Origin: Myxococcales bacterium
GTDB taxonomy: Bacteria > Myxococcota > B64-G9
Assembly: GCA_012798435.1 (NCBI GenBank)
Contig: JAAZNF010000028.1
Span: 15,362-79,361, forward strand
Length of the DNA: 64,000 nt
Direction: 5' to 3'
Below the pieces are notes generated by a model. It had not been told where the DNA came from and ran no database searches. It worked only from the letters and a program-made list of their open reading frames with translations. This document shows, piece by piece, positions 46,061 to 61,623 of this stretch (its first letter is position 1; the number at the start of each line of letters is the position of its first letter). Position numbers and translations under genes: made by a program.

Positions 46061-48394
46061 CTAGCGAAGCCGCTCCAGGTTGCGGCAGGCCTCGGGAAGC
46101 GAGAGCTTGTCGCACAGTCGCCGGTACTCCTCCTTCGCCTTTCCCAAAAGCTCCAGCTTCTCGAACACCCGTCCCCGCAGATCGGCGATCCTCGCCTCCA
46201 TGGAAAGCCAGGTCAGGCGCTCGGCCTGGGGCCGGTCCAGCGCGGCCAGCCGCCGCATCGTGGCGAACCCGTCCTCATCTCCTCCCCCGCGGCTCATGAG
46301 GGTTCGCAGAAGCTCCAACATCTCGCCATCGGCGGCGGCCAGGTGGGGCTCGATGTACGGCCCCGCCACCTCGCGGACCTGGTCCAGCAGCGCGAGCGCC
46401 TGGTCGTAGCGCTCGCGCATGAAGAAGCGCTGTGCGCCGAACACAGCCTGGTGGCAAAAGAGCAGGGCCTGCTCCATCCCCTTCGCCTGGGCCTTGAGCA
46501 GCTGGAGCCCCTTGGCGAAATACTGGTCCCGTTCCGCCTCGCTGGCGTCGCCTCCGCCGAAATCGCTCAACACGAAGTACTGTTCCGCGGTGGCCTTGCC
46601 TCGGCGGGCGAGCTCGTGCAGACGCTTGGTGATGGCCTCGGACTTCTTCTGCTGGGCCGCCGGCGGCAGGCGCCCGAAATCCTCTATCTTCATCCCCAGC
46701 GCCCGCTCGCGCCACTCCCGCTCCAGACCGGTGGCGATCTTGACAAAGTGCGACTTCTTCTCTAGCTCGGCGAACTCGCGCGCCTCACGCTCCATCCGTT
46801 CGCGCTCCTTGCGCCGCTCCTGCTCCTCGAGAGCGCGAGCCTTTTCGTGGTCCTTCTTGGCCAGTTCCTCCTGACCCGCCTCGCGGTAGCGGTAGGCGCG
46901 GTTGTGGTAGTAGCTATGCAGCTCCGCCTGTCCGTAATAGTAGCGCGCCGGGCGGGTCAGCTCCTCCTCCTTGGCCTCGATGGCCCGGGTGGCGTCGGCG
47001 ATGGCTTGCTCCTTGCGGCCGGCCTGGGCGTTCAGCACGCTCCGGAGGTTGTAGAGGTGGGAGCGGGCGATGGAGCCGAGCGCGATGGCGCGGTCGATGT
47101 CCTTGCGGATGTGTTGGTTGTGCCCTTCACGGATGGCCTGCTGCCGCGCCCCAAGCTCGTCCGAGGACCCCAGCTCGACCAGGACAGCGAACTCCTCGAC
47201 CTCGATGAGGGCCTCACGAACGTTCACCCGCATGGCGTAGAACTCGGCCTCTCCCTCGGCGAGCGCCACCGCCCGGTCGAGCGCGCCCAGGGCCTCGTCC
47301 AAGGCCTTCTTCTGCTCGCGTAGCCGCGCCAGGCACGCCTCTTTCTTCTCCGGCCCCTCGTTGCAATCTGCCGGCGTCCCCATGTTGCGGGACCACAGCA
47401 CATCGGCCCGCTCGGCGTGGGCCGCGGCCAGCTCGGGATCGAGCGCGAGCGCCTGGTCCAGGGCCCGGAATTTCTGCTCTTCTTCCAAGATCGAAAGCGA
47501 GCGGGCGTACTCGAGCCACAGCTCGGCCTTCTTCCGGTCGAGCTGCTTCTTCTTCGCCACCGCGTCCGGTCGCGCGCCGGGGAGCTGGGGCTCGCTCTTC
47601 AGCCGGGTGAGCAGCTTGTCCGCCGCCTCGGCCACCGCGGCGCGGGCGGACTCGGCGAGGTAGGGCGCGCTCCCCGCCGCCAGCAGGCAACCGCTCTCGG
47701 CCGAGAACAACATGAGCGAGAGGCGCGCCGGTTTTTCCTTGGAGAGCGAAACCTTGAGCAGGGAGTTCGCCGACAGCTCCTGGCCCAGCTCGCACTGGAG
47801 CCGGTCGTCGAAGCGCGCCTCGAAGGAGCGCTTCTTCACCTTCTCCAGCTCGGCCGACTCGGCCTCGCCGGCGAGCAGCACGAGCTTGCCACGAGCGAGA
47901 AGCTGCTCGCGCACCACGTCGCGCAACCCCGGCACGCCAATGGAAGAGTCCAGGACCAGCCGGGGGCTCTTCTGCAAATAGGCCTCGATGGCCCGCTCGG
48001 CCTCGTCCACGTGGCCGTGGCTGACCAGCAGGTTCCCTTGCCAGCTCCACACGAAGGCCGCCGGGAGCTTCCCGCCCAACCCGAAGGCCTCGGCGATCTT
48101 GCCTTCGGTATCGCACACCGTCTCGTCGGGCATCCAGCCCGGGTTGACGCACTGGCCTTCCGGGTCGAGCGTGCTCACCACCACCAGGCGCAACCCCTGC
48201 GCGCGGTACTTCTCGTGCAGGGCCTTCCAGCGGGGGACGGCCTTCATGCAGGGTTCGCACCATGTGGCGTAGAACTCCACCGCCAGAAGCCGCGTCCCCG
48301 GCCTGTCCAGCCAGCCTCGCACATCAAGCTCGCCGGCGTGCAACAATCCAACATGCAAGAAGATGCCTGCCAACAGCGGCCCGACGGTCTTCAT
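46061..48394 (-). CDS. Secreted thioredoxin-like (TlpA-type WCxxC) domain protein fused to long coiled-coil/TPR-like helical region
   Basis: Signal MKTVGPLLAGIFLHVGLLHA. LLAVEFYATWCEPCMKAVPRW is a thioredoxin fold active site. The remaining roughly 600 aa are charged helical repeats (EEQKFRALDQALALDPE...). Confidence 0.65.
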   Translation of the reverse strand: MKTVGPLLAGIFLHVGLLHAGELDVRGWLDRPGTRLLAVEFYATWCEPCMKAVPRWKALHEKYRAQGLRLVVVSTLDPEGQCVNPGWMPDETVCDTEGKIAEAFGLGGKLPAAFVWSWQGNLLVSHGHVDEAERAIEAYLQKSPRLVLDSSIGVPGLRDVVREQLLARGKLVLLAGEAESAELEKVKKRSFEARFDDRLQCELGQELSANSLLKVSLSKEKPARLSLMLFSAESGCLLAAGSAPYLAESARAAVAEAADKLLTRLKSEPQLPGARPDAVAKKKQLDRKKAELWLEYARSLSILEEEQKFRALDQALALDPELAAAHAERADVLWSRNMGTPADCNEGPEKKEACLARLREQKKALDEALGALDRAVALAEGEAEFYAMRVNVREALIEVEEFAVLVELGSSDELGARQQAIREGHNQHIRKDIDRAIALGSIARSHLYNLRSVLNAQAGRKEQAIADATRAIEAKEEELTRPARYYYGQAELHSYYHNRAYRYREAGQEELAKKDHEKARALEEQERRKERERMEREAREFAELEKKSHFVKIATGLEREWRERALGMKIEDFGRLPPAAQQKKSEAITKRLHELARRGKATAEQYFVLSDFGGGDASEAERDQYFAKGLQLLKAQAKGMEQALLFCHQAVFGAQRFFMRERYDQALALLDQVREVAGPYIEPHLAAADGEMLELLRTLMSRGGGDEDGFATMRRLAALDRPQAERLTWLSMEARIADLRGRVFEKLELLGKAKEEYRRLCDKLSLPEACRNLERLR

Positions 48395-48555
48395 GGACTC
48401 CTCCTCGCACAACCTGTTACACTTGCCGCACGTTCCCTGGTCACGCAAGAGAAAACATACCAGCCCCTGAATAGTGCAGGAAAAATTCCGTCTGCTGTTG
48501 CCAGTTGATCGGTTTTTTGCTTTCTTGGGCCAATAGTATTCAAAAGGAGCGAAAC

Positions 48556-49578
48556 ATGAGTTTCGTACGGTTTGTGGCGGGGTTGGCGATCGCTTCCCTG
48601 GCGGGGACGGCCGGCTGTTCGGGCGGGGGCGGGGGCCGCCCCACGCCCAACGTCACCCAGGAGAACCTGTGCCAGCAGGTGGCCGACGTCCTGTGCTACA
48701 ACATGTTCGAGTGCTGCACCGGCAAGCAGATCGAGGACATCCTGGGGCTCACCATCACCGTCACCCACGACAAGTGCCTGCGCGACATGGAGCTCATCTG
48801 CGAAGACCAGATCGCGCCGCTGCTCTACGCGGTGGACAAGGGCACGGCGGTCATCCGGGAGGGCGAGACCCAGCTCTGCCTGGAGGCGCTGCTGGTGTCA
48901 CCGGGGAGCTGCTTCCAGGTCGACTTCCAGGTCCCCTGGCAGCAGTATTGCCGGGAGGTGTGGTGGTCGGGGTTGCAGAACGCCGGCCAGGATTGCGTGT
49001 ACGACCTGGAGTGCATGCCGCAGCTCTACTGCGCCGCCGACCGCAAGTGCCGGGCCTACCCGCAGTTCAACGAGCTGTGCCCCTCCGGGGTGTGCGCCAC
49101 CGGGCTGTACTGCTCATACGAGGACGGCCGCTGCAAGGCGAGGAAGGGCGTCAACCAGGAGTGCCGCGACCCGGTCGAGTGCCTGGAGGGCCTCTACTGT
49201 GGGCTGGACAACCTGCAGAAGTACGTATGCCAGGCCCCGCGCAACTTCGGCGAGGCCTGCACGGCCGACTTCGAGTGCCAGAGCCAATTCTGCATCCCCG
49301 GTCTGTGCAACGACGGCAAGGAGTGCTACCGCAACGAGGACTGCGCCGGGCGCTGCGAGTTCGGCAACCAGGTGTGCGCCAACGACAGCCAGTGCCCCGG
49401 CAAGTGCCCGAACGGCACCACCACCTGCTACGACGACTACGATTGCACCGGCATCGGCTCGGGGGTGTGCTTCCACGAGCGCTGCATCCGCGGCTGCAAC
49501 GGCCAGCCGGTGTGCGGGCTCGAGTACCGAGTGATCGATTACTGCACGGACACCGTCGGTTTCTTCATGGAGGACTGA
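48556..49578 (+). CDS. Cys-rich lipoprotein (about 44 Cys), hypothetical
   Basis: RBS AAAAGGAG. Lipobox MSFVRFVAGLAIASLAGTAGCSGG. Regularly spaced Cys resembling disulfide-knot modules. The 3' end overlaps the convergent FAD oxidase gene by 14 bp. Confidence 0.6.
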   Translation: MSFVRFVAGLAIASLAGTAGCSGGGGGRPTPNVTQENLCQQVADVLCYNMFECCTGKQIEDILGLTITVTHDKCLRDMELICEDQIAPLLYAVDKGTAVIREGETQLCLEALLVSPGSCFQVDFQVPWQQYCREVWWSGLQNAGQDCVYDLECMPQLYCAADRKCRAYPQFNELCPSGVCATGLYCSYEDGRCKARKGVNQECRDPVECLEGLYCGLDNLQKYVCQAPRNFGEACTADFECQSQFCIPGLCNDGKECYRNEDCAGRCEFGNQVCANDSQCPGKCPNGTTTCYDDYDCTGIGSGVCFHERCIRGCNGQPVCGLEYRVIDYCTDTVGFFMED

Positions 49579-54703: not shown

Positions 54704-57082
54704 CTAGCGCATCCCCGATGCGCGCATGATCCGGTCGATTTCCTTCTGGAAAGCCTCGTCGGCCTTGCCGGCGGCCTCGGCCCGCAGCATCATCTCCGCC
54801 GCCTCCCCCTTGCGGCCGGTGTCGCGGGCGAGCTCGGCCTGGCGCAGCAGGCACCAGTAGGCCGGCCAGTCGGCAAGGTCCTGCGACGCTTTCAGGCACT
54901 CCGCGTAGAACGGCCCCGCGCTTGTGGGATCTTTCTTGAGGTACCGGAAGGTCTCGCCCCAGTAGTAGAAGACGTCATTCTGGAAGTACCATGCGATGCG
55001 CGGCAGCACCTCGCGCAGGCCGGTAAAGTGCGAGAGCGCGCCCTCGGCGTTGCCTTGGTCGAAGGCCATGACGCCCAGGATGTAGCGGCTCCAGAAGCCG
55101 GGCCAGTCCGCCTTGTCCTCGGAGACGTCCCAGGCCCGCTGGTGGTACCCGGCGGCGCGGACCGGATCCTTCTTCTGCGTGCGATACACCTCGCCGAGGA
55201 CGTAGAGGACGTCGTTCTGGAGGCGCCAGCGCGGAAGATCCGGCGGGAACCAGCTGGCGCGGTCCATCGCGGTCTGAGCCTCTTTGCACAACGCGATGGC
55301 GCGGTCGGCGTTGCCCTGCTGGTAAGCCATGAGCCCCAGGATGTAGCGGCTCCAGAAGGCCGGCCAGTCGGACTTGTCCTCGGAGACGTCCCAGGCCTTC
55401 TGGTGGAACTCGGCCGCCCGGGCCGGGTCGTTCTTCTGGTTGCGGCAGGTCTCGCCCAGCATGTGGAAGATGTCGTTCTTGAGGTTCCAGCTCATCCCCG
55501 GCGCGAAGGCCAGCGCCTGCTGGAACGAGGTGATGGCCCGGTCGGGTTGGTTCTGCTCGTGGGCGAGCACCCCCAGGATGTACTCGCTCCAGAAGGCCGG
55601 CCACTCGGACTTGTCCTGTGATACCTCTACTGCCTTCTGGTGAAACTCGGCCGCCTTGGCCTGATCGTTCTTTTTCAGCCGGTAGGTCTCGCCCAGCAGG
55701 TGGTAGATGTCGTTGGCGAGGTTCCAGTCCATGTTCGGCGCGAAAAGGAGCGCCTGTTTCAAGAGCGCAATGACCTCGTCGGGCTGGTTCTGCTCGTAGG
55801 CGAGTACCCCCAGGATGTATTCGCTCCAGAAGGCCGGCCACTCGGACTTGTCCTGCGACACCTCCACCGCCTTCTTGAAAAACTCGGCGGCCTTGGCCGG
55901 GTCGCCCTTCGGGTTGCGATAGACCTCTCCCAGCATGTGATAGATGTCGTTTTTCAGGTTCCAGCTCATGTCCGGCGCGAAGAGAAGCGCCTGCTGGTAC
56001 AGGGCGATGGCCCGGTCGGGCTGGTTGTTCTCGTAGGCGAGCACCCCCAGCAGGTACTCGCTCCAGAACGCCGGCCAGTCGGACTTGTCCTGCGACACCT
56101 CCACCGTCTTCTGGTGAAACTCGGCCGCCTTGGCCGGGTCGTGGAGCAACACCCGGTACGTCTCGCCCAGCATGTGGTACACGTCGTTCTGGTAGGCGAA
56201 GGAGGCGCCCTTCATGAACGACAGCGCCCGCTCGAAGTGCTCGATGGCCGGCTGCGACTTCCCCTGCTCGTAGGCCTGCAGGCCCTGGAGGTAGACGCAC
56301 CAGTAGGCCGGCCACTCGGTCTTGTCCTGCGACACCTCCACACAGCGGTGAAACATCTCAGCGGCCTTGGCAGGGTCTTTCTTGCGCGCGCGGTACAGTT
56401 CGCCCCACTGGTGGTAGAGGTCGTTCTCCAGCTTCCAGTCGGAAAACCCCGCCTTCTCCGCCTCTGCGAAGCTCTTCTCCGCCGCCGGGAGGTCGTTCTT
56501 CTCCAGCGCGGCCAGGCCCTCCTGGTAGTGTCTGGCGGCGGCCGCGGGATCGGCGACCTTCTCCGCCGGGCCCGCGCCACGGAGCTTCTTCGCCAGGAAC
56601 TCGAGCCCCGTGAACAAGGCATCCTTGCCGCAGGCGCCCTTGTAGGTGGTGGCCTTCTCGCTGGCCGCCTGGCGCAGGTCGTACAAGGTGGCGATGATGC
56701 CGCACTGCTGGCCCACCTGCATGATGCGCGTGGCCAGGGTCTTCTGGGCCGCCACCTCGCGCCCGATCTCGATCTGGCAGCGCTCGTCGAAGCACTCGCG
56801 GTAGGACTCGCGCTTCTTGTCCAGAAGCGCCTTCTTGAGCTGCTCCGGCGGCACCACCCGGTACGTCCCGTCCTCGGCCAGGATGGCCCCGAGGTACACG
56901 GTGAGGTCGGCGCGCTCGCGGTCGGAGAGGCGCGCCTTCTGTGGGCGGGTGTCCTCGATCTCGAACACCGCCACGACTGTCCCACCCTGCTCCTGGGCGC
57001 GACCAGTACGAGCCGCCGCGAACGAGGCCACGCCGCACGCGGCCACGAGCAACGCCATCCCAGGCAGTCTTCGAATGCGCAT
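54704..57082 (-). CDS. Lipoprotein with N-terminal alpha/beta domain and about 9 highly similar 73-aa TPR-like repeats
   Basis: Signal MRIRRLPGMALLVAACGVASFAAA. Repeated unit KAAEFHQKAVEVSQDKSEWPAFWSEYILGVLAYEQNQPD.AI.L.QQAL.FAP.M.WNL.NDIYH.LGE.YR. Confidence 0.75.
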   Translation of the reverse strand: MRIRRLPGMALLVAACGVASFAAARTGRAQEQGGTVVAVFEIEDTRPQKARLSDRERADLTVYLGAILAEDGTYRVVPPEQLKKALLDKKRESYRECFDERCQIEIGREVAAQKTLATRIMQVGQQCGIIATLYDLRQAASEKATTYKGACGKDALFTGLEFLAKKLRGAGPAEKVADPAAAARHYQEGLAALEKNDLPAAEKSFAEAEKAGFSDWKLENDLYHQWGELYRARKKDPAKAAEMFHRCVEVSQDKTEWPAYWCVYLQGLQAYEQGKSQPAIEHFERALSFMKGASFAYQNDVYHMLGETYRVLLHDPAKAAEFHQKTVEVSQDKSDWPAFWSEYLLGVLAYENNQPDRAIALYQQALLFAPDMSWNLKNDIYHMLGEVYRNPKGDPAKAAEFFKKAVEVSQDKSEWPAFWSEYILGVLAYEQNQPDEVIALLKQALLFAPNMDWNLANDIYHLLGETYRLKKNDQAKAAEFHQKAVEVSQDKSEWPAFWSEYILGVLAHEQNQPDRAITSFQQALAFAPGMSWNLKNDIFHMLGETCRNQKNDPARAAEFHQKAWDVSEDKSDWPAFWSRYILGLMAYQQGNADRAIALCKEAQTAMDRASWFPPDLPRWRLQNDVLYVLGEVYRTQKKDPVRAAGYHQRAWDVSEDKADWPGFWSRYILGVMAFDQGNAEGALSHFTGLREVLPRIAWYFQNDVFYYWGETFRYLKKDPTSAGPFYAECLKASQDLADWPAYWCLLRQAELARDTGRKGEAAEMMLRAEAAGKADEAFQKEIDRIMRASGMR
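54980..56390. repeat. Coding tandem repeats, about 219-bp unit, 8-9 copies with high nucleotide identity
   Basis: The string gtactcgctccagaaggccggccactcggacttgtcctgcgacacctccac recurs near-verbatim at least four times. Confidence 0.8.
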
Positions 57083-57173
57083 CGCGCGGCACCTCCGGGC
57101 GGAGGGAATTATCATTCGGGAACTAGCTGAATGCAAAGATGCCCACCACGCTACATGCTGAGGCCTGCCCGAA

Positions 57174-57932
57174 TCACTCTCCATCTGCTGGGTTATACAC
57201 AATCGTCGTCATCCCGCACGGTGTTTCGATCTCGAGTTGAATGGAACAACCCCTGCGCCTTTCGTTCTCGAGTGGAATGTTGAAAGGAAAAGGAAAGAAA
57301 ACGAAACCGCTGACGGTCTGTCCGGGAAAGACCGTATTTCGCTTCAGGGTGGAACTGGATACGTGGGCCACGGCTTCGTGCGCGTATCGATCGACCGTGG
57401 CGATTTGATCCCTGGTATCCCTCATGACCTCAAGTTGTTGCTGAGTTTTGTTATTGATGAGGATTGTTTTCCCGTCGGTTGTACTTGCAACGGTTGGTGC
57501 CAGGTACATCGTTTGCGCCCACCCGAAGGTCGCAATTGCCGCCTTGGTCATGGCAGCAGAGGTTTCCACGGAAGCTGCCAGTGTCGACGGAGAATCCGGC
57601 AGGATTGGCTTGTCTGCCCCCTTGATTCCTCTTGGAATGATCCTCATTGTTTTTCCCGGATAGAACAGTACCTCCTTCTCCGTCGTATTGCGATACGCCA
57701 GGTACACCTTGATGTACTTGTAACCGGCCACATAATCGAAGCCCATCGATGACATCAGCGTCGAACATGTGTTATCAGACACCGCGTATGGAATTCCGTC
57801 CGAGAAGAACAAGTAACGGCCTTCTGGCACTTCTGGAAGCATGATCATGGTGGGGCCCACCACTCGGTGCACCGGGACACAACTTGAGAAAATACAGAAT
57901 GCCAGGGCCATGGTGACAAGAACTGTCCTCAT
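57174..57932 (-). CDS. Hypothetical lipoprotein encoded in a low-GC (about 50%) islet
   Basis: Lipobox MRTVLVTMALAFCIFSSC. AT-rich codon usage (Lys/Asn/Ile/Tyr-rich, e.g. GFDYVAGYKYIKVYLAYRNTTEKEV) unlike every neighbouring gene. Confidence 0.6.
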   Translation of the reverse strand: MRTVLVTMALAFCIFSSCVPVHRVVGPTMIMLPEVPEGRYLFFSDGIPYAVSDNTCSTLMSSMGFDYVAGYKYIKVYLAYRNTTEKEVLFYPGKTMRIIPRGIKGADKPILPDSPSTLAASVETSAAMTKAAIATFGWAQTMYLAPTVASTTDGKTILINNKTQQQLEVMRDTRDQIATVDRYAHEAVAHVSSSTLKRNTVFPGQTVSGFVFFPFPFNIPLENERRRGCSIQLEIETPCGMTTIVYNPADGE

Positions 57933-58050
57933 GATCCCGCCACCTTCCTTTCTGTTTTTCAATTTCGGCGTCTTCCCAAAAACCACCTGTCAGCCAACGC
58001 CACCTCGCTCGGGTTGCATCTTTGCGTTCGAAGACAAAACACTGCGTTGA

Positions 58051-60240
58051 TTACCCATCTTCATCGCCGTCTTCTCCAGGCTCCTCCCCGTCTTCTTCTT
58101 CTCCCTGGCACTCTTCGCACTCCGCGCACCCATCCTCTTCTTCGTCGCTCTCTTCTTCCTCCTCGTCCTCGCCACGTTCTTGCTCACCGAAGAGGTCCAC
58201 CGGGCCGCCCTTGGCGAATTCGAGCGTCTGCAAAAAAACCGCCTCGTCCTGCTGGATGAAGCTCGCGTCCGGCGAGGCCTCGATGTCGGCGATCTTGAGC
58301 CCGAACCAGTCGGACTGGAGCGCGAGCTCGCGGGCCAGCGACGCCACCTTCTCGATGTCGCCCTCGACCACGATGGTGGATTTTCTCGCCAAATCCAGCA
58401 GCACCTCGGAGGGGTCCTCCGCATTGGCGAGGAAGTTCCGCGCGATCCCCACGATGTGCAGCGGCACGCTGTCCTCGCGAAGCGCAAGCTCCTGCGGCAG
58501 CGCGAGCTTGTCGAGGCCGGCGAAGTGGCACAGCCAGACCAGCCGGGTCCACTCCTGCCGACACAGGTGCTGGATGCCAACGCCCTGGTAATCCTCGGGG
58601 ACGGGCACCTCGACCGGCCCGTCCGGGAGAAGGAACGACACGTCGGGGACCATCCAGTCACGTTCGCCGAAGACCTCGGTCAACCGGGCCCGGTGGCGCA
58701 GCAAGCGGGTGGCGCTCTTCTGGATGGCCAGGCGGAAGCTCTCCAGGCTGGCCGCCTTGAGCCAGTGCCCCCGCTGGAGGTATCGCCGAAGCGGCGCCAG
58801 GTTGGCGCGGCGCGAGTCGGTGGCGGGCCAGAAGGTCCAGGCCGGGAACAAGGCCCGCAGATAAGCCCCGATGCCCCGGGCGGTATCGGGGTCGGCCCGG
58901 GCCAGGGTCTCGATGGAGCAAAGCGCCCCGTCGCGATCACCCAGGCTGGCGCGCACCAGCGAGCGGGTGTACTCGTGGAGCGGCGCCTCCTCGGCCGGCG
59001 CGGCCGCGATGGCGGCGTCCACCAGCTCGAGCGCGAGCCGGGACTCGCCCATGTCGTCGAGCACGCCGGCGCCGAAGCGCAGCAGCTCTGTTCCGAAGCC
59101 CCCGCGGCGGATACCCTCGAAGACCTGGTTGAGGCACTTGTCCGGTCCGGCGCCGAAGCGCACCATGTTGGACACCACCATCTTGGCGTACTGGGTCACG
59201 TGAAAGGTCGCGTGATCGGACCACGGGCGAGCCAGCCCCGCCAGGGCGCCGCGCAATTTCTCGGCGTCCGTCTCGCCGCGCCCCACGCCCCGGCCCAGGG
59301 CGAACAGCCAAGCGCCTGTCTTGCGCTCGCGTAAAAGCGCACCGGCCAGGTCGGCGAACCCTCCGCCGGCACCGAGGACCTGCTGCGTGGCCTCGAGATC
59401 CTCCGGCAGGCCGGTGTCGATGCGCGCCAGCACCTTCCCTGCCCCGTCGAGGTACTCGACGACCCCGAGCGGCGCGTCGTCCTCGAACTCGCCGCGCTCG
59501 CTCACCGCCTTCACCTGGAGCGGTTCCGATTCGTCTTGTTCCAGCGGCCGGCAGCGCGGGCCCCGCTTTTTCCCCTCAACGCAGGTGATCTCCTCGGTCG
59601 GCTCGCCGCTCTCCGGCGAGAAGTACTTCGCCAGGCCGTGCAGCTTGCCGTCCTTGTAGTTCTCCTCCGCGACCAGCACCCCCTCGGGCGTGTAGAAGCG
59701 CCAGGTGCCGATACGGGCGATGGTGCCATCCTGGTGGTCCACCACCGAGCCGACCACCCAGCGGTACTCGCCGTCCTGCTCGCGCTTGCGAAAGTGGGCG
59801 TCCGCGGGCACGTTCTTCGGCCGCTCGGGGAAGGGGGCGCCGTCCTCCATGCACTGGCGGTCCTGCTCGTCGTAGCAGCGCGCGGCCACGATGTCGCCCA
59901 TCCGGTAGTCCATCTCGGCGCGCTTCACCGCCTCTCCCAACCCCTGCGGGAACTTCTCGGTGGTCTTGGCGCTGGAGCGGTAGAAGACGTTGGTGCCATG
60001 GAGCCGGCCCTGCTCGAAGCGGCCCTCGCGCGACACCTCGCCGTTCTCATGGAACCGCCGGAAGACGCCGTGCGGAGCGCCGTGCTGGTACTCAGTCTTG
60101 CAGCACAGGGTGCCGTCCGGGCGCCACCACTGCACCCAGCCGTGGTACTCGCCTTGATCGTCCCGTTCGGGTAGGCACCACTCGTTCTCGTCTTCGGACC
60201 AGAAGGCCTCGGCGGGTACGCTGGCGGGTCTTTCCGGCAT
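58051..60240 (-). CDS. MORN-repeat-variant (YwqK-like) domain protein with large helical body and poly-acidic Cys-containing C-terminal tail
   Basis: RBS AGGAGGAAAC. N-terminal repeats GEYHGWVQWWRPDGTL..KTEYQHGAPHGVFRRFHENGEVSREGRFEQGRLHG and a later copy near KDGKLHGLAKYFSPESGE. Tail GEDEEEEESDEEEDGCAECEECQGEEEDGEEPGEDGDEDG. Confidence 0.65.
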   Translation of the reverse strand: MPERPASVPAEAFWSEDENEWCLPERDDQGEYHGWVQWWRPDGTLCCKTEYQHGAPHGVFRRFHENGEVSREGRFEQGRLHGTNVFYRSSAKTTEKFPQGLGEAVKRAEMDYRMGDIVAARCYDEQDRQCMEDGAPFPERPKNVPADAHFRKREQDGEYRWVVGSVVDHQDGTIARIGTWRFYTPEGVLVAEENYKDGKLHGLAKYFSPESGEPTEEITCVEGKKRGPRCRPLEQDESEPLQVKAVSERGEFEDDAPLGVVEYLDGAGKVLARIDTGLPEDLEATQQVLGAGGGFADLAGALLRERKTGAWLFALGRGVGRGETDAEKLRGALAGLARPWSDHATFHVTQYAKMVVSNMVRFGAGPDKCLNQVFEGIRRGGFGTELLRFGAGVLDDMGESRLALELVDAAIAAAPAEEAPLHEYTRSLVRASLGDRDGALCSIETLARADPDTARGIGAYLRALFPAWTFWPATDSRRANLAPLRRYLQRGHWLKAASLESFRLAIQKSATRLLRHRARLTEVFGERDWMVPDVSFLLPDGPVEVPVPEDYQGVGIQHLCRQEWTRLVWLCHFAGLDKLALPQELALREDSVPLHIVGIARNFLANAEDPSEVLLDLARKSTIVVEGDIEKVASLARELALQSDWFGLKIADIEASPDASFIQQDEAVFLQTLEFAKGGPVDLFGEQERGEDEEEEESDEEEDGCAECEECQGEEEDGEEPGEDGDEDG

Positions 60241-60500
60241 GTTTCCTCCTCGGCAGGACACCGTCCGCCTGAAATGGACTGGACACTGGCCTCGGCGACC
60301 ATATCAGCAAACACAACAACCGCAACGAGAAATCGATGGAATGGCTTTCGACAGACCTCTCGCGGAGCGCGGTCGCCGATTGCATCTTCCGCCGATGTTT
60401 GAGACGCTGCTTCACGTCATCCCGAAGAACCGCATCCGGGTAGATCCATCGCAGGCATGGCCCGTCAACAACGGTGTCGAAAAAATAAAGGAGAAAAGCC

Positions 60501-61623
60501 CATGAAAACAAAGGTGATTTCGATCACGTTCCAGGTCCTCGTCGCCGTCCTGCTGGCGCTTCCGGCGAGCGCCCAGCAACAGCGAAAGCCGCTCATCCAG
60601 ATGGCCATCTTGCTCGACACCTCGGGCAGCATGGACGGGCTCATCAACCAGGCCCGCACCCAGCTGTGGAAAGTGGTCAACCAGTTCGTCGCCACCAAGA
60701 AGGACGGGGTGCGGCCCGAGCTCCAGGTGGCGGTGTACGAATACGGCAACGACGGCCTGCCGGCCAACGGCGGCTACCTGCGCATGGTGTCGCCGCTCAC
60801 CACCGATCTCGACGCCGTGTCCGAGGCGCTGTTCGCGCTCAAGACCAACGGCGGCAGCGAGCACTGCGGGCAGGTGATCCAGGCCGCGGTGAACGGGCTC
60901 TCCTGGAGCCCGTCCCCCGCCGACCTCAAGGTGATCTTCATCGCCGGCAACGAGCCCTTCACCCAGGGCCCGGTGGACTTCCGCCAGGCCGTCAAGGCGG
61001 CCATCGCCAAGGGCATCATGGTCAACACCATCTTCTGCGGCAACCGCAGCGAGGGCGAGAACAGCGGTTGGAAGGAGGGGGCACAGCTCGCCGACGGCAG
61101 CTTCATGGCCATCGACCAGAACCGTCAGGTGCTCGAGATCGCGGCCCCGCAGGACGCCGAGATCCGCAGGCTGAACGACGAGCTCAACCGCACCTACGTG
61201 GCCTACGGCGCGCGCGGCAAGGCGGCCAAGGCGCGCATGGCGGCGCAGGACAAGAAGGCCGAGTCGGCGGCCCCGGCCGCCGCGGCGGAGCGCGCGGCTT
61301 TCAAGTCGTCGGGGAGCTACGGCGCTGGCGGCTGGGACCTGGTGGACGCGGTCAAGGAGGGCAAGGCCAAGGCCGGCGACATCCCGGCCGAGGAACTCCC
61401 CGAGGAGATGCGCGGCATGAACGCCGAGCAGCAGAAGGCCTACCTCGCCGAGCAGCAGAAGAAACGCGCCGAGCTCCAGCAGAAGATTCAGAAGCTGGCC
61501 GAGGAGCGCCGAAAGTACATCGCCGAAAAGCAAAAAGAGGCGGCCGGCGCGGACACGCTCGACGGCGCCATGATCCAGTCGGTGCGCGAGCAGGCGAAGA
61601 AGAAGGCCTTCCAGCTCGAGTAG
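60501..61623 (+). CDS. Secreted von Willebrand factor A (vWA) domain protein with Lys/Glu-rich coiled-coil tail
   Basis: RBS AAGGAGAAAA. Signal MKTKVISITFQVLVAVLLALPASA. MIDAS LLDTSGSM. ...IFIAGNEPFTQG...NTIFCG. Confidence 0.75.

Follow-up and report, generated by a model that had tools for sequence, protein, structure and literature searches.

Lipoproteins of the DUF4352/MPT63 type, exemplified by YcdA (4r4g) and YjhA (3cfu) of Bacillus subtilis and by MPT63 (1lmi) of Mycobacterium tuberculosis, are built on an Ig-like β-sandwich. Among immunity proteins, periplasmic lipoproteins are common, and the immunity proteins of the YwqK type are small, stand-alone repeat proteins. In B. subtilis, YwqK confers immunity to the LXG toxin YwqJ (PMC8321402, PMC6562991). 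A DUF4352 domain also occurs in mycobacterial Mpr, where it is reported to be of phage origin and to be required for resistance to phages (PMC12596739), and where it is joined to a membrane-bound nuclease part (PMC12596739; 2026 bioRxiv preprint).

The locus described here lies in a 64-kb window, i.e., the whole stretch of 64,000 nucleotides that was analysed, and contains a lipoprotein gene between a MORN and a TPR gene (Table 1). It is very probable that this one foreign gene was inserted between its two native neighbours by cross-phylum transfer, without the involvement of an integrase. The locus is of little importance by itself, and its interest is that of a clean, well-bounded transfer of one gene across phyla without mobility genes, with the empty site preserved in a sister species.

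Table 1. Features of the locus, in window coordinates.
Feature	Position	Strand	Remarks
Low-GC block without counterpart in the closest relative	57113..58060	.	blastn against L001, junction alignment, GC and tetranucleotide profiles
TPR-repeat lipoprotein gene, native	54704..57082	-	starts MRIRRLPGMALLVAAC...; directly 3' of the MORN gene in the relative
Promoter-like site 5' of the TPR lipoprotein gene	57108..57137	-	TTTGCA, 18-nt spacer, GATAAT
Inverted-repeat right arm, 14 nt	57129..57142	-	GCATCTTTGCATTC; overlaps the -35 element of the TPR promoter-like site
Lipoprotein gene, 252 aa, GYA21_04855	57174..57932	-	signal peptide, lipobox Cys18, β-sandwich, helical hairpin (predicted)
Spacer, MORN stop to lipoprotein start	57933..58050	-	118 bp, 52% GC
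Inverted-repeat left arm, 14 nt	58016..58029	+	GCATCTTTGCGTTC
MORN gene, native, 729 aa, GYA21_04860	58051..60240	-	MORN_2, TPR-like, helical, acidic tail
~10 MORN_2-type β-hairpins	59416-60240 (aa 1-275)	-	
TPR-like repeats of the MORN protein	58846-59397 (aa 282-465)	-	
Helical domain of the MORN protein	58213-58803 (aa 480-676)	-	
Disordered poly-Glu/Asp tail of the MORN protein	58054-58173 (aa 690-729)	-	
CAECEEC in the MORN tail	58108-58128 (aa 705-711)	-	
VWA-domain gene, native	60457..61623	+	divergent from the MORN gene; syntenic in the relative

A preliminary description had drawn attention to a low-GC segment at 57100-58050 as the only one in 64 kb and to its AT-rich codon usage, and both observations hold. 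GC content in this interval is 51-55%, compared with a window mean of 0.690 (sd 0.038; 300- and 400-bp windows), and sliding-window GC falls below 0.56 in no other run of the whole 64 kb. The tetranucleotide check proposed along with the GC profile identified the same block as the top outlier, the distance in 900-bp windows peaking at 57151-58050 with z=5.6, the maximum in the window. GC3 is 0.61 in the lipoprotein ORF vs. 0.89-0.93 in neighbouring genes (TPR, 0.92; MORN, 0.886; VWA, 0.92; PHP-like, 0.93). Part of the local dip is intrinsic to the lipoprotein family, because in FCB genomes, too, its members usually have a GC content 3-11 points lower than that of the flanking DNA, yet the 17-point drop and the GC3 found here are far larger. 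The foreign core probably spans ~57143-58050, its start being placed there because weak similarity to the promoter region of the relative resumes near 57142. At 58050-58300, the dip is partly just the coding sequence of the Glu/Asp-rich tail of the MORN protein. A second dip, at 60250-60550, was considered and rejected as foreign DNA, as it corresponds to a conserved divergent promoter region (blastn against the relative).

The closest relative, GCA_964561025.1 (L001; ~91% nucleotide identity), retains the VWA, MORN, and TPR genes in synteny and is collinear with the window on both sides of the block at 90-96% identity (blastn). At its site, 72 bp stand in place of the 948 bp of the block, the MORN and TPR genes being separated by 98 bp, and two more assemblies of this relative have the same empty arrangement. 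The lipoprotein orthologue at a syntenic low-GC position that had been named as a sign of ancient residence is therefore absent from the closest relative. The arrangement MORN-lipoprotein-TPR was recovered at 99.9% identity and with identical junctions in metagenome assemblies from SRR25213505 and ERR1876141. An assembly chimera was rejected, since two independent metagenome assemblies carry the block, and the insert is confirmed, at the level of assembled sequence, by three independent assemblies.

The relatives of the lipoprotein lie elsewhere. A search of ~15 billion proteins identified 91 homologue representatives at E<1e-3, all of ~250 aa and none with more than 32% identity, and the best of them (32%) is encoded in an Eisenbacteria MAG, in agreement with the non-myxobacterial best match that had been anticipated for this gene. 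A motif scan of 185,579 species genomes yielded 37 matches, 14 of which were false by HMM check; the 23 verified copies were all in FCB-type or unclassified MAGs, with none in Myxococcota, and the taxa represented were Ignavibacteria, Zixibacteria, Eisenbacteria, Fibrobacteres, Kryptoniota, and Bacteroidetes. By the protein searches, absence of the family from Myxococcota appears well supported; the genome scan is non-exhaustive, its motif being present in ~45% of family members and one that the window variant, LKRNT, would escape. A word-indexed protein search returned the query only, and the family profile in the same search returned seven proteins. In the protein collection as a whole, the lipoprotein was found only in this one population. 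As the family is found mainly in FCB-group bacteria, the transfer would have crossed phyla. The direction of change, gain or loss, was read from composition and phyletic pattern and not from parsimony, with one syntenic outgroup available, and judged on these grounds the islet is a recent import of one gene by ordinary horizontal gene transfer. A best match of only 32% among ~15 billion proteins fits the term "recent" poorly, although an unsampled donor lineage or fast evolution after the transfer could account for it.

An alternative is that the lipoprotein gene was ancestral to both genomes and was deleted in the lineage of L001. The comparison involves a single syntenic genome, and the 72 bp of the empty site align to neither spacer of the window, such that neither a clean excision scar nor a target-site duplication is present to prove insertion. 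Long residence is difficult to reconcile with a GC3 of 0.61 among genes of ~0.9, which argues for little time spent in this genome, or with the lack of a Myxococcota homologue among the proteins and species genomes searched. Loss from L001 would, moreover, still imply a foreign acquisition, only a slightly older one, and an ancestral gene is considered unlikely.

In the favoured scenario of cross-phylum import, a single foreign gene would have entered through illegitimate recombination that involved neither an integrase nor a transposase, and would have landed in the ~100-bp spacer between the co-directional native genes for the MORN/TPR scaffold and the TPR lipoprotein. No integrase, transposase, tRNA gene, or direct repeats were found at the insert borders. 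The statement that neither an integrase nor a repeat boundary is visible thus holds for the integrase and requires correction for the repeat, as a 14-nt inverted repeat brackets the insert. This repeat was equalled in 1 of 1000 shuffles, a figure to be read in light of its post hoc selection, and it has no further copy in the window. One of its arms is native promoter sequence, which weakens its reading as a mobile-element end; the promoter-like site to which that arm belongs is itself judged native because the relative without the insert has conserved part of it. With genomic islands and integron cassettes, the insert shares foreign composition, absence from the sister genome, and a single ORF of cassette size; unlike them, it lacks an integrase, a tRNA gene, a direct repeat, and any recognisable attC, and by eye the GTTRRRY core was not seen in the 91-bp spacer 3' of the lipoprotein ORF.

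Because the spacer that follows the MORN gene contains neither a sigma-70-like promoter nor a terminator, the lipoprotein gene would be expressed by read-through from the MORN transcript, with translation from its own site, the Shine-Dalgarno-like GGAAGGTGG located 7 nt 5' of the ATG. An Rfam search over 56500-60800 (E<=1) gave no match. The locus thereby offers a small test case of how promoter-less foreign genes gain expression, here apparently via read-through. Following translation, the product would be exported by the Sec pathway and held in the cell envelope, with Cys18 as the acylated residue, and it may be pictured as a divergent DUF4352/MPT63-type sandwich with a projecting helical hairpin of 80 residues.

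The insert carries this ORF only, and the gene is intact and real, as indicated by its 91 homologues of ~250 aa, a conserved lipobox Cys and family motif, and a confident AlphaFold model (pLDDT 93.9). The assignment as a lipoprotein is sustained by the lipobox MRTVLVTMALAFCIFSSC, which satisfies the PROSITE-type rule (CIFSSC, read as IF-S-S-C18), and by the invariance of its Cys in the alignment of the closest homologues; the strict regular expression matches 55 of 95 family members. The model contains a DUF4352/MPT63-type β-sandwich formed by aa ~29-101 and 199-250, between the halves of which a helical hairpin of ~80 residues (aa 115-194), with a small β-hairpin at its tip, is inserted. Family members share the motif LR[RK]NTxFPG..G[YF]xYF, and 52 of 95 keep GE at the extreme C-terminus.

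Kinship with the described lipoproteins is visible in the Ig-like β-sandwich and in the hallmarks '..Y.N.S/T....L.P' and 'PG..v.G.vyF..P'. The differences are a sub-threshold Pfam score, the 80-residue hairpin insert, the conserved C-terminal GE, and occurrence in Gram-negative FCB-group bacteria, whereas DUF4352/MPT63 proteins are found in Firmicutes or Actinobacteria. With the hairpin removed, the family consensus matched a single Pfam family, DUF4352 (PF11611; 16.2 bits vs. a gathering score of 25.9, E=0.014), which was also matched by 2 of 69 family members at E ~0.006; the window protein itself had no DUF4352 match with this HMM (gathering score, 25.9 bits). More generally, the window protein gave nothing significant in Pfam, NCBIfam, PADLOC, or PHROGs, and among PDB sequences a family-alignment profile matched one unrelated protein only, in its signal peptide. 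The modelled fold is a known one, and the family, comprising ~90 clusters at 50% identity, is unnamed; the locus defines this family together with a confident structural model. By analogy with other lipoproteins of the DUF4352/MPT63 fold, there is an even chance that the protein is a surface module that binds or oligomerises and has no enzymatic activity.

A second alternative views the lipoprotein as a mobile, single-gene envelope defence that moves between genomes and acts in phage or superinfection exclusion. The gene did arrive by horizontal transfer, and its DUF4352-like fold recalls the reportedly phage-derived domain of Mpr, but the 252-aa lipoprotein consists of a signal peptide, sandwich, and hairpin only, with no other Pfam or PADLOC domain, and therefore has neither the nuclease nor the other parts of Mpr. 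Weak Foldseek matches in BFVD are to phage DUF4352/DUF5067 lipoproteins; in contrast, PADLOC and PHROG gave no match, and of three motif matches in viral contigs, none was a family member by HMM check. One contig carries two paralogues amid GmrSD, IS110, DO-GTPase1, and SIR2_2 genes, and a single family member lies near Mu Gam, yet such matches are isolated, the 88 neighbours in 23 genomes being mostly housekeeping genes or T9SS cargo. A general association of the family with defence islands was rejected, having been seen on that one contig only. Altogether, this mobile-defence explanation is very unlikely, and a phage-exclusion role for the lipoprotein is improbable in itself. Equally doubtful is the broader idea that the family constitutes a self-sufficient envelope module against phages or predators that passes from phylum to phylum as one gene; if true, the locus would represent a freshly caught transfer of a defence module into a predatory myxobacterium. 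The proposed marks of such a module are the DUF4352-like sandwich, the projecting helical hairpin, and the conserved C-terminal Gly-Glu.

The MORN gene is native and appears to be vertically inherited, in view of its GC3 of 0.89 and its full-length orthologues in eight other assemblies, which are 51-89% identical. The proposal of horizontal acquisition accordingly survives for the lipoprotein gene, with its empty site, composition, and relatives in other phyla, and not for the MORN gene. The MORN/YwqK-like repeats are genuine, with PF07661 (MORN_2) scoring 33.8 bits vs. a gathering cut-off of 29.6 (E=2.2e-8), and the acidic tail with CAECEEC is present as described, although the supposed helical body of 600 aa proved to be ~400 aa consisting of a TPR-like region and a helical domain. 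Like YwqK, the protein has MORN_2 repeats above the Pfam threshold that form a β-hairpin repeat domain; it differs from YwqK in its length of 729 aa, its TPR-like and helical domains, its acidic tail, and the lack of an adjacent toxin here or at four orthologue loci.

These differences bear on the earlier suggestion of an immunity/effector-like pair, which found no support. No toxin domain occurs within ~18 kb in the window, where the MORN gene is accompanied by the VWA gene, the inserted lipoprotein gene, and the TPR gene, and none was found next to the MORN gene in L001, L004, L012, and L013, the four orthologue loci inspected, which all have the MORN gene without the lipoprotein and in varied contexts. 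Genes of the lipoprotein family have no conserved partner in 26 other loci, the largest neighbour cluster being T9SS-tail cargo. The MORN gene is therefore independent of the lipoprotein gene. That the two products form a toxin/immunity pair, in either assignment, acquired together, is exceedingly improbable: the significant MORN_2 match, the JGI label 'antitoxin component YwqK' on MORN orthologues, the role of YwqK in B. subtilis, and the frequency of periplasmic lipoproteins among immunity proteins are outweighed by the native, host-like codon usage of the MORN gene, the separate occurrence of the two genes, the lack of a toxin, LXG, Rhs, or nuclease domain in or around the MORN protein, its large multi-domain architecture in place of a small stand-alone immunity protein, a negative PADLOC result for both proteins, and a predicted difference in location, the lipoprotein being exported and lipid-anchored and the MORN protein having no signal peptide. 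A 'YwqK antitoxin' label on a large MORN protein need not, then, mean a toxin system.

The MORN protein reads instead as a cytoplasmic protein-interaction scaffold of MORN, TPR-like, and helical domains. In Hop/Sti1, PP5, CHIP, and SGT, TPR co-chaperone domains bind acidic C-terminal peptides; the MORN protein has no sequence-level match to them, and it is speculation that its acidic tail folds back onto its own TPR groove. CAECEEC is limited to this lineage, one Cys being gone already in the 89%-identical orthologue, and its interpretation as a metal site was rejected because it is not conserved. On the other side of the insert, the native TPR lipoprotein gene contains a 237-bp tandem repeat array.

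Across the window, GC content averages 69.0% (sd 3.8% in 400-bp windows), and between 57100 and 58000 it falls to 51-55% in every window; the 64 kb is otherwise without any run below 56%, bearing out the preliminary description of this islet as the only such segment. Sliding-window analysis also places the top tetranucleotide outlier in the same 900 bp (z=5.6), and the ORF that they contain has a GC3 of 0.61 vs. 0.89-0.93 for the four surrounding genes. Genes of the lipoprotein family to which this ORF belongs usually have a GC content 3-11 points lower than that of their flanks in their own genomes (FCB, the bacterial group holding most of them), and therefore a small share of the dip is a family trait, which the 17-point drop and the GC3 far exceed.

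Shallower dips occur elsewhere. The low values at 58050-58300 are partly due to the Glu/Asp codons of the tail of the adjacent MORN protein. A second, smaller dip (0.55-0.58) at 60250-60550 falls in the spacer from which the MORN and VWA genes diverge; foreign origin was ruled out here, since ~92% identity to the relative marks it as native regulatory DNA. Minor dips to 0.575-0.59 are found at about 37500 and at 48200-48600, and the dip near 48300 covers mostly the 5' end of 46061..48448(-), reaching the short divergent spacer before 48505..49578(+).

Coordinates of the inserted gene and of associated features (window positions, or residues where marked aa)
Feature	Location	Remark
Lipoprotein gene (GYA21_04855)	57932..57174(-)	252 aa
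14-nt inverted repeat, GCATCTTTGC[A/G]TTC	57129-57142 and 58016-58029	brackets inserted gene
Lipoprotein beta-sandwich	aa 29-101 + 199-250	AlphaFold
Lipoprotein antiparallel helices	aa 115-142 + 162-194	AlphaFold
MORN gene (GYA21_04860)	60240..58051(-)	729 aa; upstream of lipoprotein gene
MORN-type beta-hairpins, about ten	aa 1-275	AlphaFold
MORN protein, helical repeat	aa 282-465	AlphaFold
MORN protein, further helical domain	aa 480-676	AlphaFold
MORN protein, disordered tail	aa 690-729	AlphaFold
CAECEEC of MORN protein	58108-58128 (aa 705-711)	within acidic tail
TPR gene	54704..57082(-)	
Tandem array in TPR gene	55292-56341	237-bp (79-aa) unit, ~4.4 copies
VWA gene	60457..61623(+)	divergent from MORN gene

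Comparison with the closest relative (GCA_964561025.1) revealed an empty site. Its 51-kb contig has the same gene order as the window (FG-GAP/CARDB, VWA, MORN, TPR) and aligns at 91.6% identity from 64000 down to 58061 and at ~90% again from 57112 downwards, with 948 bp between the aligned blocks in the window vs. 72 bp in the relative. The distance from MORN stop to TPR start is 98 bp in this contig, and the same spacing holds in two more assemblies of the organism. An assembly chimera is ruled out by two independent assemblies (runs SRR25213505 and ERR1876141), in which the MORN-lipoprotein-TPR order recurs at 99.9% identity. The islet is thus a one-gene insertion, and what is documented, very cleanly, is an ordinary single-gene acquisition.

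The preliminary description had reported neither integrase nor repeat boundary, and the first half of this holds: no integrase or transposase lies inside the insert, no tRNA or other Rfam family was detected when the islet and the sequence directly flanking it were scanned, and no direct repeat was found at the islet borders. The second half does not hold, as a short inverted repeat brackets the islet. One as long arose in 1/1000 shuffles of the two spacers, and no further copies exist elsewhere in the window. It is not called a mobile-element end, because the right arm shares bases with the -35 element of a promoter-like site serving the TPR gene, a site that the relative without the insert also retains in part. 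The insert would have entered the spacer by illegitimate recombination, directly ahead of the TPR promoter, presumably leaving both native genes intact.

The N-terminal MRTVLVTMALAFCIFSSC of the inserted ORF is a signal peptide with a lipobox at its end, confirming the assignment of the product as a lipoprotein. A word-indexed search of 5.8 billion clusters returned only the query itself, annotated "MAG: Myxococcales bacterium, GYA21_04855," and Pfam, NCBIfam, PADLOC, and PHROG models gave no match. HMMER, run exhaustively against 1.84 billion representatives, identified 91 relatives at E<1e-3 (top identity 32%, nearly all ~250 aa), showing that the gene is real. The relatives share the lipobox Cys, a Y-x-N-x-S/T strand, and the motif LR[RK]NTxFPGxSVNG[YF]xYF. 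Gly-Glu forms the C-terminal end in 52/95 members (P0026-P0115; alignment A2), and so conserved a C-terminus points tentatively to a signal for sorting or recognition.

When 185,579 species genomes were scanned for the motif, encoded as a degenerate DNA pattern, and matches were verified by the family HMM, 23 true loci emerged: Ignavibacteria/Ignavibacteriota (9), Zixibacteria (4), Eisenbacteria (2), Fibrobacteraceae (2), Kryptoniota (1), Bacteroidetes (1), unclassified MAGs (3), and an "archaeon" MAG (1), whose contig, carrying a fragment of a member (L030 753-1175, E=5e-40), is probably mis-binned. None of the 23 belongs to Myxococcota, and the best single homologue comes from an Eisenbacteria MAG, so that the proposed non-myxobacterial kinship was upheld. 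Hence the window gene was imported across phyla, from an unsampled donor with a GC content of roughly 50%.

AlphaFold modeled the lipoprotein with high confidence (pLDDT 93.9, pTM 0.83; 69-sequence alignment) as a beta-sandwich split by a pair of long antiparallel helices that carry a small beta-hairpin at their tip. DUF4352 is the sole Pfam family matched by any members (2/69, E ~0.006); the family consensus minus the hairpin matches only DUF4352 (16.2 bits, E=0.014, under the 25.9 cut-off), and weak Foldseek matches among viral structures are DUF4352/DUF5067 lipoproteins. The relationship is read from the predicted fold, with which these weak sequence signals agree. The insert thus carries one member of an unnamed family that is structurally a DUF4352 variant, distinguished by its helical-hairpin insertion; failing to reach the gathering score, the window protein is not a DUF4352 member by the Pfam criterion.

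The 118-bp spacer between the MORN and lipoprotein genes yielded no promoter or terminator, and thus the lipoprotein gene may be transcribed by read-through from the MORN gene and translated from the GGAAGGTGG ribosome-binding site. The product would be exported, acylated at Cys18, and fulfill a non-enzymatic binding or oligomerizing role in the envelope. Because the DUF4352 domain of mycobacterial Mpr is reported to be linked to phage resistance (PMC12596739), a defense role is retained at low probability. Two paralogues lie 16 kb apart on one 78-kb JGI contig (L009 6001-6822; L014 6001-6777), surrounded by GmrSD, an IS110 transposase, DO-GTPase1, a 1275-aa SIR2_2 protein, and the small genes DUF6883 and DUF4926, which looks like a defense or mobile island. 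A block of lipoprotein, 161-aa ORF, and GmrSD recurs on another contig (L010) in a different upstream context, and one family member is near Mu Gam; such neighborhoods are not general for the family.

The MORN protein was originally viewed as a possible partner of the lipoprotein in a horizontally acquired immunity/effector-like pair. Its MORN/YwqK-like character was borne out (MORN_2, 33.8 bits vs. a gathering score of 29.6), as was its poly-Glu/Asp tail with CAECEEC. A profile search of PDB sequences yielded only a weak match to the SET7/9 MORN region. The AlphaFold model (pLDDT 90.3) comprises four regions, and the non-MORN body, thought to span 600 aa, measures ~400. Full-length orthologues form a small family (51-89% identity; P0003 of the closest relative, 89%) and keep DLFGE and the acidic tail; these orthologues and host-like codon usage indicate a native gene, to which horizontal acquisition does not extend. 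The Cys-containing stretch is an insertion restricted to the window and the closest relative, where it reads CAECDER, and the seven more distant orthologues lack Cys at the site, making a metal site unlikely. Lacking a signal peptide, the MORN protein probably serves as an interaction scaffold in the cytoplasm; that its acidic tail binds the TPR region and causes autoinhibition is speculation. In other proteins, MORN modules of the same type occur joined to LRR, HEAT, or other bodies.

Neighborhoods likewise argue against a pair. Downstream of MORN orthologues are an asparaginase/NTP-transferase (L004), a 179-aa ORF (L012), and, encoded on the opposite strand, a 1456-aa ORF (L013); these contexts contain neither the lipoprotein nor a toxin domain. 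Within about 18 kb, the window encodes a subtilase, a thioredoxin-TPR protein, an FAD oxidase, a PHP-domain protein, the TPR lipoprotein, and the VWA protein, but no toxins. PADLOC returned nothing for either protein. No neighbor is conserved across 26 loci of the lipoprotein family, whose 88 neighboring ORFs mainly encode housekeeping enzymes and T9SS cargo. The two genes are unlinked and do not form a functional pair.

The TPR gene itself contains a tandem array. The TPR protein has 792 aa in the window vs. 713 in the closest relative, so that the two lengths differ by one repeat unit exactly, by which measure the array is expanding or contracting between the sister species.
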